A stretch of DNA of 64,000 bases from an uncultured delta proteobacterium (GTDB lineage: Bacteria > Desulfobacterota > Desulfomonilia > UBA1062): positions 320,001 to 384,000 of the forward strand of contig CAWCTR010000007.1 of NCBI GenBank assembly GCA_963798485.1, given 5' to 3'. The position numbers and the translations under genes were made by a program. Shown piece by piece: positions 35,847-40,494 of this stretch (position 1 is the first letter of the stretch; every line of letters starts with the position of its first letter). The notes under the pieces were generated by a model that saw nothing but the letters and a program-made list of their open reading frames with translations, ran no database searches and had not been told where the DNA came from.

Positions 35847-37004
35847 ATGCAATTCATTGACCTGAATTACCAGCAGAAGTTGATCCATGGGAAGATCATG
35901 GAGAACATCACGACTGTTCTCACACATGGACAGTACATCATGGGACCGGAGATCAGAGCGCTTGAAAAAAAACTCAGCGAATTTGTGGGGACAAAGCATG
36001 CCGTTGCATGTGCTTCGGGTACGGATGCCCTTCTGATGGCCCTTATGGCGTATGGTGTCGGGCCCGGTGATGCCGTTTTCACAACGCCGTTCACCTTTGT
36101 TGCAACGGCAGAGGTCATTTCTCTGCTGGGGGCAACACCCGTATTCGTGGATATCCAGCCGGATACCTTCAATATCGATCCTGAAAGGCTTGAAGAAGCA
36201 ATATCAGCCCTTGAGGGGCGCAACCCCAAGAGACATCCATTGCCTAATGGGTATGAAAAGCTTGATCCAAAAGGGATCATTGCAGTGGACCTTTTTGGTC
36301 AGAGCGCAGACTACAAACGCATCAATGGCATAGCCAAAAACAAAGGCATGTTTGTCATTGAGGATGCGGCGCAGTCTTTTGGAGCTGAATATAATGGCGC
36401 CAAGGCATGCTCCTTGGCTGATATTGCCGCCACTTCATTTTTTCCGGCAAAACCCCTGGGATGCTATGGAGACGGTGGAATGGTCTTCACCGGTAATGAC
36501 GAACTCGCATCAAAGCTTGATTCCATTCGAGTTCATGGCAAGGGATCTGACAAGTATGATAACATCCGTATAGGGATCAATGGCAGGTGTGACACCCTAC
36601 AGGCAGCTATCCTGCTGGCGAAGTTCGAGATCTTCGAGGAGGAGATCGAACTCAGACAGAAGGTGGCGTGGCAGTATAACCTGTTGCTCGGCGTTTCTGA
36701 TAAGCTCACGTGCCCAACTGTCAAACCGGGTCATAAGAGCGTATGGGCACAGTATTCCGTGCTCTGTAACAACAGGGAGGTCATCCTGGATGAACTCAGG
36801 GACGCTAAGATCCCGAGCGCCATCTACTACCCGAAACCTCTCCATGTACAGACCGCCTATGCCTACCTCGGGTACGAACCCGGCGCCTTTCCTGTCTCGG
36901 AAAAGGCTGCTGAAACGATCTTCTCCCTGCCCATGCACCCTTATCTTACAGCGCAGGACCAGGAACAGATCTCGCAGGTGATAATCAAGACGTTAGAAAT
37001 TTAG
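35847..37004 (+). CDS. DegT/DnrJ/EryC1/StrS aminotransferase, WbpE/WlbC-type
   Basis: SGTDAL, EDAAQSFGA, SFFPAKPLGCYGDGG; next to WbpB/WbpD-like fusion. Confidence 0.9.
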   Translation: MQFIDLNYQQKLIHGKIMENITTVLTHGQYIMGPEIRALEKKLSEFVGTKHAVACASGTDALLMALMAYGVGPGDAVFTTPFTFVATAEVISLLGATPVFVDIQPDTFNIDPERLEEAISALEGRNPKRHPLPNGYEKLDPKGIIAVDLFGQSADYKRINGIAKNKGMFVIEDAAQSFGAEYNGAKACSLADIAATSFFPAKPLGCYGDGGMVFTGNDELASKLDSIRVHGKGSDKYDNIRIGINGRCDTLQAAILLAKFEIFEEEIELRQKVAWQYNLLLGVSDKLTCPTVKPGHKSVWAQYSVLCNNREVILDELRDAKIPSAIYYPKPLHVQTAYAYLGYEPGAFPVSEKAAETIFSLPMHPYLTAQDQEQISQVIIKTLEI

Positions 37005-37010
37005 TTTAAT

Positions 37011-37033
37011 AGTTTAAAGTGTTAAGTTTTAAG
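37011..37033 (+). repeat. Left heptamer array (GTTTAAA-GTGTTAA-GTTTTAA), inverted partner of 37422-37444
   Basis: AGTTTAAAGTGTTAAGTTTTAAG matches the reverse complement of 37422-37444 at 20/23 positions. Confidence 0.75.
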
Positions 37034-37044
37034 AAAACTTAATA

Positions 37045-37440
37045 ATGGCATACCATTCTTTTGAAGATTTGGAGGTATGGAAAAGAAGTTGCAGGCTGAC
37101 TGTGAAAGTATATGAGTTGTTCAAGAACTCAAAAGAATATGTACTACGGGATCAGATGACCCGCTCTGCCCTCTCGATTCCTAGCAATATTGCAGAGGGT
37201 GCTGAGAGGAGCTCATCTCTGGAGTTTATTCGTTTTCTAAACATTGCAAAAGGTTCTGCCGCTGAATTGAGAACACAATTGTATATAGCATCAGAAGTTG
37301 GAGCTATTCCTGGTTCTAAGAGAGATGAACTGAAAAAAGAGCTCATTGAGATCTCTTCCATGTTGCAATCACTCATAAGATCCTTAAAGAGCAGCACCAG
37401 CGGGAGACCAAAGACTTCAAACTTAAAACCTAAAACTTAA
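37045..37440 (+). CDS. Four-helix-bundle protein (23S rRNA IVS-encoded/TIGR02436, Avd-related family)
   Basis: SFEDLEVWK, LRDQM.RSALSIPSNIAEG.ER, FL.IAKGSAAELRTQL. Confidence 0.93.
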   Translation: MAYHSFEDLEVWKRSCRLTVKVYELFKNSKEYVLRDQMTRSALSIPSNIAEGAERSSSLEFIRFLNIAKGSAAELRTQLYIASEVGAIPGSKRDELKKELIEISSMLQSLIRSLKSSTSGRPKTSNLKPKT

Positions 37441-37444
37441 AACT
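37409..37444 (+). repeat. Right heptamer array (CAAAGAC-TTCAAAC-TTAAAAC-CTAAAAC-TTAAAAC) spanning the stop codon
   Basis: Five consecutive 7-mers read directly; encode the tail KTSNLKPKT-stop. Confidence 0.8.
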
Positions 37445-37449
37445 GTATA

Positions 37450-39042
37450 ATGAACAAGGAGATTCAATTGAAGAGCACAGATGTAAAAGTTGCAGTCATC
37501 GGTTCAGGATACTGGGGTAAGAATCTGGTGAGAAACTATGCCGAGCTTGGAGCTCTCTATGGTGTCTGTGACAGCAGCGATTCTGCCCTCGATTCATTCA
37601 GACAGAAGTATCCAATGATGAAATTCACCACAAATTACTTAGATCTTCTCAATGATGATGCCTTGAAGGGCATCGTTATTGCCACACCGGCAGAAACACA
37701 CTTTACCCTTGCGCGGGAAGCGCTTCTATCAGGCAAGGATGTCTTTGTGGAGAAGCCCTTATCGCTCAATGTAGATGAGGCGGGGGAGCTTAAAGAGATC
37801 GCTGAGAAGAATTCACTGATCCTTATGGTTGGCCATCTGCTTCAGTATCACAGCGCCTTCATCAAGTTGAAGGAACTTACAAGGGATGGCCAGCTTGGAA
37901 GGATTCATTACATCTATTCCAACCGACTCAGCTTCGGCAAGATCCGCAGGGAAGAGGATATTCTGTGGAGCTTTGCACCGCACGATATCTCCATGATACT
38001 CACCTTAGCCCAGGAAGAGCCGGAATATGTAATGGCAACCGGCGGCAATTACCTTCACAAGAAGATTGCCGATGTTACCACCACCCATCTAGAATTCGCC
38101 AGCGGGCTCAAGGCACATGTATTCGTATCATGGCTCCATCCCTTCAAGGAACAGATGCTCGTTGTTGTTGGAGAGAAGAACATGGCAGTATTCAGGGACA
38201 CTGTCCCATGGGGTGATAAGCTGCTCCTGTACCCGCATAATATCCAATGGCACGACGGCATCCCCATCCCTGACAAGAAAGACGAGATAAAGATACCCGT
38301 TGAACAGAGCGAGCCGCTGAAGGCAGAGTGCCTCCACTTCATTGAATGTATCAGTCAAAGGAAGGCCCCGGTAACCGATGCCCGGGAAGGTATCAAGGTA
38401 CTTAAAATCCTCAAGGCAAGCCAGGATTCGTTAAACAACAATGGCAGGAAGATCATGCTGAAGGAAGACCTCAAGAAGCCGCATGAGTATTCCGTGCATG
38501 AATCAAGCTATGTAGATGATGGTGTTGTTATTGGGGCAGGGACTAAGATCTGGCATTTCAGCCATATCCTGAAAGGGTCACGCATCGGCAACGGGTGCAG
38601 TATCGGCCAGAATGTGGTCATCGGGCCTGATGTGAATATCGGGAACGGTTGCAAGATTCAGAACAACGTCTCTATCTACAAGGGCGTCAACCTTGAAGAC
38701 AATGTCTTCTGTGGGCCATCCATGGTCTTCACCAATGTCTTCAACCCCAGGGCCCATATCCCCAGGATGGACGAGCTGAGGCCCACCCTGGTGAAGAAGG
38801 GTGCCACCATCGGCGCGAATGCCACCATTGTGTGCGGTTATACCATCGGTGAGTATGCATTCATCGGCGCAGGTGCTACGGTAGCCCGCGGTGCCCCTGA
38901 CCATGCCCTCATGGTGGGCAACCCTGCCAAACAAATAGGGTGGATGTGCGAGTGCGGTAATAGGCTTGATGATAATTTAGAATGTTCCCACTGCGCAAAG
39001 GCATATCAGCGAAGGGAAAAGGGATTGACATTGAGGGGGTAG
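37450..39042 (+). CDS. Gfo/Idh/MocA oxidoreductase fused to hexapeptide N-acetyltransferase (WbpB-WbpD/WlbA-WlbB-like)
   Basis: [17 protein letters not shown]; then [37 protein letters not shown]. Confidence 0.9.
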
Positions 39043-39111
39043 ATGTTTTTTAAGTTATCTTACTATTATTCCCGTAGTATAATCATTTGAATATAAGTTA
39101 AGGAAAATATA

Positions 39112-40275
39112 ATGAATGAAAGACAAGATAAAGAAATTTATAATGATGAGATAGATCTAAGAGAGTTTTTTTTAACTCTCTGGCGCTCCAAGTGGCCCAT
39201 CATGGGGATAACTTTTTCATTCATACTTATAGCTGCGCTCTATTCTTTTTATGCCCCTAAAGTTTATAGAGTATTTATGGTTGTCGAACCGGGAATCATC
39301 GATGTAACTGCTGATGGAAAGTACATTTATCTGGATACTCCTGATAATATCAAAGGTAAGATAGAAAGTGATGCCTACCTTCCCCGAATCTTGAAGTCAT
39401 TGCACATGCACCCTGATGGAATGGATTTAGATTTCAAGGTAACTGTACCAAGAAACGCCAACGTCCTCATCGTTTCTACTGAGTTTCCTAAAAATAAGAC
39501 AAATTTTGGGATGCAGATTCTCAGACAACTCCTTGTGGAGATGCAAAGTGATTATGCCCAGGAATTGCGGAAAAAAAAGGATGAGTATCAGAAACAGATC
39601 CTGATGAAACAAAATCAATTCAACGATATTGAAACACTGCGAAAAGATCTGGATCAACAGATCGGTATCAAGCAAGGTCTTGTGAAAGAGAAGAGGGGGC
39701 AGATCAAGTTATTAAGTTCTATGATTTCAATCGGTAAGCAAAGGGAAGCCGATCTCCTCAGTGATCTGAAAGATGTTAAGGGCAACACACAGAGAATGGC
39801 CGTGCAGCGCGATCAGATGTTAAGGCAGGGAGTTGCTAATAAAGAGAGTGGGATGACAGACCTACTATATTCAACAACCATTCAACAGAATGTGGTCTTT
39901 TTCAATGAATTGAAAAATCAGGTCAATCAAACCAGGATAGAAAGAGAAACCCATGAATCAGATATCAAAAAGTTGGAGGATGAGTTAAATGAAAATGAGC
40001 GGGAGATTGAGCGCCTGAGGTTGAAACAAAAGGAAGAACTCAAGTCAAAGGGCGATGCCCTTGGTATTGAGATTGCTGATTTCCAGAACAAGATCACCCA
40101 GATTCAAAATATTAAAACCATCAGTGAACCTACCGTATCCCATCGTCCTATTAAACCAAGACCTGTTCGTAATGTGGGCATTGCCCTCATCAGCGGTTTG
40201 TTTATCGGGCTAATTGTTGCATTTGTGTTGGAATATATTTCTTCTGGCAGCAGACAAGTGGACCAACGCACCTGA
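39112..40275 (+). CDS. wzz: Wzz-type polysaccharide chain-length determinant with long coiled coil
   Basis: DEIDLRE..LW, TM1, long coiled coil, Pro-rich PIKPRP plus Gly-rich TM2. Confidence 0.85.
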   Translation: MNERQDKEIYNDEIDLREFFLTLWRSKWPIMGITFSFILIAALYSFYAPKVYRVFMVVEPGIIDVTADGKYIYLDTPDNIKGKIESDAYLPRILKSLHMHPDGMDLDFKVTVPRNANVLIVSTEFPKNKTNFGMQILRQLLVEMQSDYAQELRKKKDEYQKQILMKQNQFNDIETLRKDLDQQIGIKQGLVKEKRGQIKLLSSMISIGKQREADLLSDLKDVKGNTQRMAVQRDQMLRQGVANKESGMTDLLYSTTIQQNVVFFNELKNQVNQTRIERETHESDIKKLEDELNENEREIERLRLKQKEELKSKGDALGIEIADFQNKITQIQNIKTISEPTVSHRPIKPRPVRNVGIALISGLFIGLIVAFVLEYISSGSRQVDQRT

Positions 40276-40290
40276 TGGAGGGGTTTTTTA

Positions 40291-40494
40291 TTGATCCAAG
40301 CTTCCTCTACTCCTTGGTCAATTAGGCGTAAGATCGGCTCTGTAAGTGTTATTGCGTTCTAGATCAAGAGATCATACCTGGGGGGGGGGGCAGGAAGACG
40401 GTTCCTGTTCCAGCTACCTAAGGATAGGTATGTCTGGAGCATGGGAACTGCCATAAGGCAGAGGAGTAATGGGGAAGATCAAGCGTCAGATTAG
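40291..40494 (+). pseudogene. Probable glycosyltransferase (GT4-like) N-terminal remnant containing a G11 tract
   Basis: RBS plus TTG, in-frame ...SVIAF*IKRSYLGGGAGRR..., premature TAG; G11 at 40380-40390. Confidence 0.35.

Follow-up and report, generated by a model that had tools for sequence, protein, structure and literature searches.

A PF05635 gene enclosed by inverted heptamer arrays in an operon spacer of an uncultured deltaproteobacterium

A small gene of the PF05635 family lies between two inverted arrays of 7-nt repeats in the window, the 64,000-nucleotide stretch of DNA that was analysed. On balance, the locus is best explained as an intact, horizontally spread cassette of the intervening sequence (IVS) type, in which a promoter-less PF05635 gene sits inside two inverted 7-nt arrays that would form a stem and to which its protein would be cognate. 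The cassette is a discrete insertion into an operon spacer, and the gene-in-hairpin design is the rule for the PF05635 family. This class of cassettes takes in the ORF-bearing intervening sequences of 23S rRNA. The family is normally packaged in a cognate 7-nt hairpin, in operon spacers as well as in rRNA; a literature search found no paper describing the design outside rRNA.

Results and Discussion

Cassette organization

The cassette is positioned exactly between the stop codon of the upstream gene and the Shine-Dalgarno (SD) sequence of the downstream gene, in the spacer of a sugar-nucleotide operon (Table 1). The initial annotation had described a gene with inverted heptamer flanks between an aminotransferase and an oxidoreductase gene, and this arrangement is present. 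The G+C content is 0.37-0.41 in the cassette region versus 0.49-0.56 in the aminotransferase gene.

Table 1. Features of the cassette and its host genes (window coordinates).
Feature	Coordinates	Strand	Evidence
Whole cassette, ~448 nt (left heptamer array, ORF, right heptamer array)	37005..37452	+	
Left (5') heptamer array; units TTTAAAG / TGTTAAG / TTTTAAG	37002..37033	+	TRF, pairing
Four-helix-bundle ORF, 131 aa, 23S rRNA IVS protein / S23p family, intact	37045..37440	+	PF05635, TIGR02436, NF008912
Right (3') heptamer array; units CTTCAAA / CTTAAAA / CCTAAAA / CTTAAAA	37414..37444	+	TRF, pairing
Upstream host gene, DegT/DnrJ/EryC1-type sugar aminotransferase	35847..37004	+	PF01041 (E-value: 2.2e-105)
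Downstream host gene, GFO/IDH/MocA oxidoreductase fused to hexapeptide acyltransferase, including SD	37456..39042	+	PF01408, PF00132, PF22725

A genome-wide profile search gives a single PF05635 match, the cassette ORF. The genome thus holds no second copy detectable by this search, which counts against the mobility assumed in the favoured explanation. Nor does inspection of the junctions, filled sites against empty ones, reveal a target-site duplication by eye. The locus (L001) has no Rfam match to rRNA, whereas the comparison locus L131 does, and the insertion site lies between two protein-coding genes. No intrinsic-terminator-like site is found in 36700-37700; the loop of the cassette is 388 nt long. 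A candidate outward promoter (TTAAAA-17-TATAAT at 37423-37451, 10/12 positions) was rejected, as promoter-like sites number 2 versus 1.4 +/- 1.1 in shuffles.

The four-helix-bundle protein

The cassette ORF product has the conserved domain PF05635 (E-value: 2.2e-35; 121.5 bits, cut-off 33.8; positions 1-105 of 106) and also matches TIGR02436 (123.3 bits, cut-off 24) and NF008912 (154 bits, cut-off 124). PF05635 is the only domain matched in the 131-aa protein, and no catalytic domain is recognizable. Its solved relatives by sequence are PDB 2gsc (XCC0516, 5 chains; E-value: 1e-17) and 2rld (E-value: 7.4e-8). A family relative forms a homopentamer ring, as cited in passages of PMC4990558 and PMC10053308, and from the solved relatives we infer that the cassette protein may be a pentameric ring as well. 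No match to anti-phage defence was found (0 PADLOC families at E-values up to 0.01). The genome encodes an RNase III (match of 227 bits).

An SD-like motif precedes the ORF in 90 of 144 cassette relatives. In the window no SD-like 4-mer stands before the ATG of the cassette ORF, and its translation may therefore be poor.

Inverted heptamer arrays

Positions 37011-37033 and 37422-37444 form an inverted repeat of 23 nt with 20/23 (87%) complementary positions, 388 nt apart. Two more registers of the arms, each shifted by 7 nt, also pair (83% and 88%). TRF finds a period of 7 in both arms, with 3.3 copies at 37011-37033 and 4.4 copies at 37414-37444. By eye, the left array extends into the upstream stop codon (TAG, 37002-37004). 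The right array encodes the last nine codons of the ORF and its stop codon, and so is indeed translated as the protein tail, as had been noticed at the outset.

The initial annotation had allowed that the match between the arms might be no better than in shuffled A+T-rich sequence. The match score of 14 was reached in 0 of 200 dinucleotide-preserving shuffles of the flanks (mean 7.3, maximum 12) and in 0 of 100 shuffles in a second run, so that the arms surpass every shuffled control. As was anticipated, the arms are also paired when 36990-37470 is folded, in the MFE structure as well as in the centroid structure. The fold energy of these 481 nt taken together is unremarkable, however (z -1.42), and 7 of 100 shuffles equal it.

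An RNA stem selected on the sense strand is normally expected to show a preference for G.U over A.C mismatches. The arm mismatches show no such excess, with 64 G.U versus 54 A.C in 80 cassettes and 82 versus 89 in 142 cassettes (p 0.65). Because this preference is missing, the complementarity may be maintained at the DNA level. A search for sequencing runs listed 20 metagenome runs of the DNA type, none of which has the locus as RNA. The left and right arms do not differ in array length or in unit uniformity (lag-7 self-match 0.789 versus 0.795, p 0.56), and for this reason the two are indistinguishable as to which is "read".

The insertion site in related genomes

In seven genomes of the same genus (G006, G007, G008, G009, G011, G012 at two places, and G014) the matches to the two flanks are just 40-103 nt apart, and the host genes are adjacent without an insert. 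The empty spacers of G007 (36 nt) and G008 (28 nt) were inspected, and each has an SD sequence. G007 is the closest genome by its flanks (83.9 and 90.2% identity), yet its spacer is empty.

G002 and G003 carry the cassette in an ORF-deleted form. Their flanks are 75-85% identical to the window, and the right 130 nt of the cassette is 92.3 and 90.5% identical, respectively; the cassette is more conserved than both flanks (Fisher tests, p = 1e-4 and 0.013). In G003, G002 and G024 the arms are kept and the ORF is deleted in three different ways. The ORF thus decays while the arms persist.

The same spacer is filled in G023 by a member of a different subfamily with different heptamers. In G010 it holds an MntA/HepT toxin-antitoxin pair and so looks like a permissive landing site. 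Of the 13 other genomes of the genus, one has a family member of any kind. Relatives show the cassette spacer in an empty, a filled or an ORF-deleted state, which upholds the earlier view of an IVS-like cassette of ORF and arms in an mRNA spacer.

Start of the downstream gene

The SD sequence of the downstream gene (AAGGAG, 37456-37461) lies 6 nt before an in-frame TTG at 37468. This TTG is the likely start, although the ORF finder begins instead at the ATG at 37450; a TTG start behind an SD sequence is also found in the orthologues of G008, G010 and G024. The idea that the cassette supplies the downstream start (BLAST homology to G007 resumes only at 37481) was rejected, since the TTG and the SD sequence are shared with the cassette-free G008 and G010. 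The initial annotation had seen no SD sequence before either ATG, which is correct for the cassette ORF but not for the downstream gene.

With the stem closed, ~17 unpaired nt would separate the upstream stop codon from the SD sequence, and ~29 nt would separate it from the TTG start. Counted by hand, the distance from stop to SD is 15 nt in the empty site of G008 and 23 nt in that of G007. The closed cassette would thus come near the empty-site spacing, which suggests that the insertion is tolerated. The proposal that the stem re-couples translation of the neighbouring genes is plausible in its geometry, but the ATG at 37450 was the wrong reference and the count has to be made to the TTG and its SD sequence. 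The upstream stop codons next to 98 cassettes (TAG 31, TGA 31, TAA 36) point to no clear target codon.

Distribution of the design

Among loci of the phylum, 81 of the 103 that could be tested have flanking inverted repeats unmatched in 100 shuffles; both the window's own locus and a duplicate pair are among those counted. The loci come from 10 of 41 related genomes and from 153 of the 301 genomes sampled in the phylum, and were selected for the best HMM score. Such arms are also found at 63 of 77 loci of the closest relatives, which belong to many phyla. As a control, 150 random ORFs (100-180 aa, same genome) were searched, and only one has such arms. The arms do not exceed the shuffles at 22 of the 103 phylum loci and 14 of the 77 closest-relative loci. 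Homologues of the window gene therefore generally have the inverted flanks that were first noticed here. Self-match reaches 0.71 at lag 7, whereas no other lag exceeds 0.36; of 69 left arms, 57 have their best lag at 7. The mode across cassettes is four units per arm.

The same design is found inside an LSU rRNA gene at two loci of G088, a genome of this phylum (L131 and L132; RF02541, 1044 bits), and the sole identical pair of cassettes that was met lies in two rRNA operons. A scan of 89 proteins encoded next to cassettes gave mostly unrelated operons (chemotaxis, ABC transport, sucCD, purA, hsdMS, T6SS, BREX), with sugar-transferase and DegT genes recurring. Given this diversity, a regulatory role specific to surface-glycan expression, as initially proposed, is not supported.

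Heptamer type and protein lineage

Nearly all of the closest relatives have units like those of the window, of the GTTTTAA / GTGTTAA / GTTTTCA type. Among protein pairs of 55-65% identity, a fraction of 0.33 have heptamers that agree at 6 or all 7 positions, and among pairs above 65% identity the fraction is 0.59; a composition-preserving null gives 0.045 and 0.067 (maxima over 200 nulls 0.069 and 0.110). The pairs are phylogenetically non-independent. In the same pairs, four-fold sites are 0.28-0.33 identical, which is near saturation. Across phyla, the repeat type thus moves together with the protein lineage and diverges along with it. Because the heptamers track the lineage although synonymous sites are saturated, the repeats appear to be cognate to the protein, and judging from this co-divergence the protein probably reads its own repeats. 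G020, a single genome, has cassettes whose heptamers are of several kinds, so it is not the host that sets the specificity. A phase pattern, nAGKgnT in the 5' arm, is shared between heptamers (3.97 bits versus 3.35 +/- 0.11 in the null, maximum 3.59 of 40), and in its AG core A is found in 47 and G in 43 of 57 aligned heptamers. For the earlier suggestion that the protein acts on its own heptamers to control glycans, the part concerning the heptamers gains indirect support, as their type follows the lineage, and the part concerning glycans does not.

Solo heptamer hairpins

Heptamer hairpins also occur without an ORF. G000, the genome of the window, has them at C2:20027-20125, C9:5325-5395, C10:41665-41726 and C17:286897-286962; two of the G000 hairpins have the GTTTTAA unit of the cassette and a T run after the stem. 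Solo hairpins with the cassette's unit are found in G000, G002, G003, G004 and G007, and several of those in G000 recur at orthologous positions in G002, G003 and G007, so the hairpin itself may have a function for the host. The loops of 12 such hairpins were searched for ORF remnants; the blastn-short matches were all repeat-like and 9-17 nt long, and no hmmsearch match had an E-value under 1.5. As these loops hold no ORF traces, the view that solo hairpins may be cassette fossils is based on the ORF-deleted intermediates.

Comparison with known systems

ORF-bearing intervening sequences of 23S rRNA are described for helix 45 in Coxiella burnetii and for Leptospira (PMC4990558, in passages that cite Ralph and McClelland 1993). 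According to the same passages, RNase III cuts rRNA intervening sequences in mid-stem, heptameric repeats are noted, and in Coxiella the heptamers precede the ORF and vary in number between strains, with decay of the ORF reported. The cassette resembles these elements in its protein family and in that its terminal inverted repeats would form a stem with the ORF in the loop. It is like the Coxiella element, as there described, in its tandem heptamers before the ORF, its length (~430-450 nt) and the decay of the ORF while the element persists. It differs in its host, which is an operon mRNA spacer and not helix 25 or 45 of 23S rRNA; cleavage in such a spacer would split the message, unlike in rRNA, whose pieces are held together by the ribosome. 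In the passages of PMC4990558 drawn on here, moreover, the heptamers are regarded as peculiar to a single species and are not presented as family-wide, paired and cognate arrays.

The STRR of cyanobacteria are one example of dispersed heptamer repeats. Others are GGGAATC of Xanthomonas (70-75 convergent pairs) and GGGGA(C/T)T of Nostoc, described in passages of PMC4692102, and TAACTGA of Beggiatoaceae, described in passages of PMC4679880. Like the solo hairpins, these are tandem 7-nt repeats that are mostly intergenic and often paired in inverted orientation; one of their strands is rich in G, and they are stable from one related species to another. The arrays found here differ in that they enclose a gene and follow its lineage in sequence, and neither of the two papers mentions the PF05635 family ("S23", "four helix" and "23S" are absent).

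The Avd protein of diversity-generating retroelements is a homologous four-helix bundle, a pentamer and a nucleic-acid-associated accessory protein (passages of PMC10053308). Unlike Avd, the cassette is accompanied by no reverse transcriptase in the 64-kb window, and the eight RVT_1 matches of the genome lie elsewhere, the nearest ~90 kb away. We know of no Avd gene that is enclosed by heptamer arms.

MITEs and REP/REPIN sequences are short intergenic elements with inverted repeats that are mobilized in trans, have ORF-less copies and are patchily distributed. The cassette is like them in its terminal inverted repeats, ORF-less forms and patchy distribution, and unlike them in that its arms are 7-nt arrays instead of unique ends, its protein has no known transposase fold and no target-site duplication is seen. 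TRAP is a ring-shaped homo-oligomer that binds (G/U)AG repeats in the trp leader RNA. It offers a functional analogy only: a ring combined with short tandem units that have an AG core, so that each subunit could take up one unit and binding could compete with an RNA stem. The fold of TRAP is unrelated, and the units here are spaced by 7 nt and modally four per arm, with heptamer binding proposed from sequence comparison.

Proposed model and alternatives

The model that we favour is as follows. The arms would pair on the operon transcript into a stem of ~23-30 bp, with the ORF looped out. By analogy with the rRNA-borne relatives, for which this has been demonstrated, the stem may be a substrate for host RNase III. 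The ring-forming protein would recognize its own heptamers through the nAGKgnT pattern of the 5' arm, and protein and repeats would be a cognate pair serving the upkeep or spread of the cassette rather than glycan synthesis.

A broader reading, which is possible but held only tentatively, joins these points: a ring-shaped repeat reader and its arrays would make up a new minimal autonomous element that decays to bare heptamer hairpins. Each subunit would bind one 7-nt unit, sequence-specifically and by the conserved AG core. The element would insert behind a stop codon and ahead of the following ribosome-binding site, or in hairpin loops of rRNA. It would neutralize the polar effect of its insertion because it folds out of the transcript, and it would have spread across phyla; its decay products could be a large part of the 7-nt repeats that bacterial genomes contain in unexplained excess.

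A mobile element acting at the DNA level is rather unlikely, yet it is the likeliest of the rivals. The arrays would be terminal binding sites, comparable to the sub-terminal repeats of some transposons, and the protein would recognize these ends and bring in replication or repair enzymes of the host. The RNA stem would be a by-product, as would any cleavage by RNase III, and the solo hairpins would be ORF-less, MITE-like derivatives or fossils. This agrees with the lack of a G.U excess (82 versus 89) and with the co-divergence of repeat type and protein, which is also seen for transposases and their ends. It also agrees with the patchy distribution within the genus (1 of 13 genomes), the spread of the closest relatives over many phyla, a cassette better conserved than its flanks next to an empty nearest relative, the different subfamily and heptamers in the spacer of G023, and the solo hairpins with the same unit in five genomes. 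Against it, the 131-aa protein has only the PF05635 domain and no recognizable catalytic domain, the site in the window has no target-site duplication, and recent multi-copy bursts are lacking, with one genomic copy and the sole identical pair in two rRNA operons. The solo hairpins that were compared are, moreover, orthologous across species and hence old, and their genomes have no intact cognate gene.

It is improbable that the hairpin came first, as a host terminator or an mRNA-stabilizing, REP-like stem, and that the gene landed in its loop by itself. The four ORF-less hairpins listed for G000, the T run behind the GTTTTAA unit in two of them and the conservation of several hairpins at orthologous sites in G002, G003 and G007 would fit such an origin. 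However, the heptamer type accompanies the protein subfamily in many phyla and co-diverges with it, so the arms travel with the gene; the empty orthologous spacers inspected (G007 and G008) hold no hairpin, ORF-deleted intermediates with full arms exist, and the cassette has no terminator-like site.

Just as improbable is a host regulatory device, in which stem-loop and protein would have been recruited to control the polysaccharide operon, whether through attenuation, through processing or as a switch of the downstream gene that depends on the protein. The location exactly between two operon genes, the recurrence of sugar-transferase and DegT neighbours, and arms that outlast the ORF in G002, G003 and G024, as if the hairpin mattered to the operon, are what such a device would lead one to expect. 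Most genomes of the genus, however, run the same operon without the cassette, identical designs are found in unrelated operons and in rRNA, and the MntA/HepT pair of G010 marks the spacer as an apparently permissive landing site.

Chance complementarity between two A+T-rich, low-complexity stretches, to which the base composition of the region and the simple-repeat arms might point, is already refuted by the controls, namely the 0 of 200 and 0 of 100 shuffles and the single control ORF with arms beside 81 of 103 and 63 of 77 relatives.

Significance

The PF05635/TIGR02436 family is very large and has solved structures but no known function; it is present in 153 of the 301 phylum genomes sampled. 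With the IVS-type cassette as the preferred reading, the question of its function becomes experimentally simple (repeat binding, RNase III dependence, arm swaps), and the locus is a good test case, since its relatives provide the site without an insert, the cassette in its intact state and three forms in which the ORF was independently deleted. For annotation, such small genes with their arms are to be treated as insertions that are able to supply stops, and sometimes starts, to neighbouring genes. The cassette design joins the nature of rRNA intervening sequences, the role of the PF05635 family and the origin of dispersed heptamer repeats.

Cassette structure and host operon

The cassette ORF product matches TIGR02436 as well as PF05635, scores above the cut-off of the subfamily model NF008912 and is the only PF05635 copy detected by profile search of the window genome. 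Its gene lies between that of a DegT-type aminotransferase and a gene encoding a fused GFO/IDH/MocA oxidoreductase and hexapeptide acyltransferase. Both flanking arms have a period of 7 (TRF; 3.3 copies left, 4.4 right), and two further registers, offset by one unit, also pair in the repeat search. When the flanks were shuffled 200 times with dinucleotides preserved, no shuffle equalled the arm match. On the profile matches, the period and these shuffles, the bracketing of the ORF by inverted heptamer arms proposed in the initial annotation is real, and the match is better than that of shuffled controls. MFE and centroid folding both recovered the predicted pairing; the fold energy of the whole cassette stretch, however, is ordinary (z = -1.42). 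The left array begins at the stop codon of the upstream gene (judged by eye), and the right array encodes the last nine codons and the stop codon of the ORF.

The downstream gene had been described as lacking a Shine-Dalgarno (SD) sequence. This was wrong: AAGGAG (37456-61) precedes an in-frame TTG at 37468, and orthologues in three related genomes (G008, G010 and G024) also have a TTG start behind an SD. A sigma-70-like sequence (TTAAAA-17-TATAAT, 37423-37451; 10/12 positions) lies within the right arm, directed towards the downstream gene, but the number of such sites in the region does not exceed that in shuffles. The Wzz-like chain-length gene 3' of the oxidoreductase (window 39000-40300) has a low G+C content (0.33-0.43), like the cassette, and the two sugar genes are well above it (0.49-0.60).

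Coordinates of the cassette, its host gene and related features (G000, window genome; G088, another genome; C, contig)
Feature	Location	Strand	Remarks
Cassette ORF	window 37045-37440	+	131 aa; ORF finding; PF05635 E-value 2.2e-35
Upstream aminotransferase gene (DegT-type)	window 35847-37004		
Inverted-repeat arms	window 37011-37033 / 37422-37444		23 nt; 87% complementary; 388 nt apart; repeat search
Cassettes L131 / L132 in LSU rRNA gene	G088:C1:557094-558808 / 3945751-3947465		identical over 1715 nt
ORF-less inverted heptamer pairs, G000	C2:20027-20125; C9:5325-5395; C10:41665-41726; C17:286897-286962		loops 0-44 nt
Reverse-transcriptase matches, G000	C10:124322; C18:2012; C7:263981; C7:266011; C7:636395; C2:83629; C17:74951; C18:3891		

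Empty, filled and decayed alleles

Window 36300-38200 served as query to find the same spacer across the taxonomic family (52 genomes). Among 13 other genomes of the genus, just one encodes a PF05635 family member. In seven same-genus genomes the host-gene matches are just 40-103 nt apart, so that aminotransferase and oxidoreductase are directly adjacent, as expected of empty sites. The two of these spacers that were read, of 28 nt in G008 and 36 nt in G007, contain an SD and no repeat, with 15 and 23 nt, respectively, from stop codon to SD (manual count). With the stem closed, the window locus has about 17 unpaired nt from the upstream stop to the SD and about 29 to the TTG. The cassette is an insertion between two host genes.

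Decayed copies occupy the spacer in other relatives. G003 and G002 keep both arms and have lost most of the ORF through two different internal deletions. G002 carries an additional MITE-like insert of about 135 nt (L033:1330-1465), positioned after the left heptamer arm and before the ATG of the ORF remnant; the insert has a terminal inverted repeat of its own and encloses a G+C-rich hairpin. In G024, of another genus, a cassette of the window's type in the same spacer has a third deletion that removes approximately the first 55 codons. It is located at a contig break (L020 end / L015 start, i.e. C47 end / C40 start), where the contig ends overlap with a few differences, suggesting strain variants or a repeat-caused assembly break. 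The spacer of G023 holds a different PF05635 subfamily (34% protein identity) with different heptamers. Because G010 has a nucleotidyltransferase and HepT-like (MntA/HepT-type) toxin-antitoxin pair there in place of a cassette (L037:805-1466), this appears to be a permissive landing site.

The nearest relative by flanks, G007 (83.9 and 90.2% identity), has an empty site. The right 130 nt of the cassette are 92.3 and 90.5% identical to those of G002 and G003, whereas the flanks of both are just 75-85% identical (Fisher p = 1e-4 and 0.013, against both flanks); this comparison, over just 130 nt, suggests that the cassette is younger than its flanks.

Distribution of heptamer-armed cassettes

PF05635 proteins are encoded in 153 of the 301 genomes of a phylum sample. 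Loci were chosen by best HMM score from this sample and from relatives, and 103 of 119 were testable (excluding 9 partial matches, 1 short flank and 6 without a family ORF), a number that includes the window locus itself and a duplicated pair. As anticipated for PF05635/TIGR02436 genes in general, inverted repeats beyond all 100 shuffles flank the ORF in 81 of the 103 loci (88 at ≤5/100), compared with 1 (3 at ≤5/100) of 150 random 100-180-aa ORFs of the window genome run through the same pipeline. Arm self-match is 0.71 at lag 7 and at most 0.36 at other lags; lag 7 is best in 57 of 69 left arms, and arms most often contain four units.

When this sample is pooled with that of the closest relatives (142 distinct cassettes), a co-directional upstream ORF ends -25 to +30 nt from the left arm in 98 (median gap 4 nt), often with its stop codon inside the left array. 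Two co-directional neighbours are present at 49 of 77 loci. A specific role in surface-glycan expression is unlikely, as the neighbours of other cassettes (89 proteins scanned out of 154 candidates) are diverse: chemotaxis, liv-type ABC transport, sucCD, purA, hsdM/S, T6SS, BREX and several sugar genes.

Two cassettes with CTAGAGA-type heptamers, L131 and L132, are bona fide 23S rRNA intervening sequences (IVSs) from the same phylum as the window. Their position inside the LSU rRNA gene makes the rRNA IVS one habitat of the same cassette. According to a Coxiella study, the IVS of that organism has a 28-bp terminal stem cut mid-stem by RNase III, a variable number of tandem GACAGAT heptamers 5' of the ORF, and a decaying ORF whose protein is probably not produced (PMC4990558). 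Bacterial heptamer repeats, including inverted pairs, are described in two further papers, the available portions of which do not mention the PF05635 family (PMC4692102, PMC4679880). No paper was found that treats such cassettes as a class beyond rRNA, most subscription journals lying outside the scope of the search.

Repeat sequence and protein lineage

The closest-relative set comprises 79 loci (49-73% protein identity) from named records of many phyla; 63 of the 77 testable loci have arms at 0/100 shuffles. Their units are nearly all of the window's GTTTTAA, GTGTTAA, GTTTTCA or GTTTTAG type, and more distant proteins of the phylum sample have quite different units. Comparison of 115 cassettes gives a heptamer match no better than chance (3.5-3.7 of 7) for proteins below 45% identity; it climbs to 4.98 in the 55-65% range and to 5.62 beyond 65%, values that none of 200 composition-kept shuffles reached. 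At four-fold degenerate sites these pairs are close to saturation (identity 0.25-0.33 throughout), and several different units occur among the cassettes of a single genome, G020. Judging from these comparisons, of pairs that are phylogenetically non-independent, the unit sequence is itself conserved beyond complementarity and tracks the cassette protein, not the host. The protein presumably binds its own repeats.

A phase pattern, nAGKgnT, is common across unit types (A 47, G 43 and T 39 of 57 aligned heptamers; 3.97 bits, null maximum 3.59). In 130 cassettes the G-rich arm lies on the 5' side, in 8 on the 3' side. On the sense strand the arrays contain more stop triplets than expected (115 cassettes, L001-L218), with 0.45 per unit in right arms of the diverse sample against a null of 0.24. 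All three frames contain stops in 24/59 left and 16/59 right arms (nulls 16.3 and 8.7); owing to the 7-nt period, a repeated stop falls in every frame within three units.

Solo heptamer hairpins

Of the ORF-less hairpins of the window genome, those on C9 and C17 consist of the cassette's GTTTTAA unit with a run of T past the stem. The C2 hairpin lies between two co-directional ORFs, its right arm ending 3 nt 5' of the next ATG. GTTTTAA-type solo hairpins are found at many sites in the sister species G002, G003, G004 and G007 (L219-L235), none of which has an intact family gene. Several sites are orthologous: one next to a tRNA is shared by four species, and at the C17 site the loop measures 8 nt in the window genome but 44 nt in both G002 and G003. 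No ORF remnants are detectable in the solo-hairpin loops.

Level of action and classification

Arm positions are Watson-Crick paired in 3738 of 4122 cases (90.7%). Mismatches show no wobble excess on the sense RNA (82 G.U vs 89 A.C; 64 vs 54 in the first sample), which counts against a stem kept purely at the RNA level. On mRNA, the arms would form a stem that could be processed by RNase III, which the host genome encodes, and the protein would read the repeats. A sequencing-run search for the locus turned up no RNA data set among those listed.

The family is linked to Avd, the accessory protein of diversity-generating retroelements, in one paper (PMC10053308). A role as such an accessory protein was rejected, as none of the eight reverse-transcriptase matches of the genome lies in the window. 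Two pairs of these matches have equal scores on different contigs, which would fit either repeated retroelements or contig duplication; contamination of the assembly is rated at 6.96%.

The initial proposal of an IVS-like cassette in an mRNA spacer is borne out by an insertion with empty, filled and decayed alleles and by the same design within an LSU rRNA gene. The locus belongs, as an intact copy, to a class of IVS-type cassettes with heptamer arms, and stands out for how completely its relatives represent the empty, filled and decayed states of the site.
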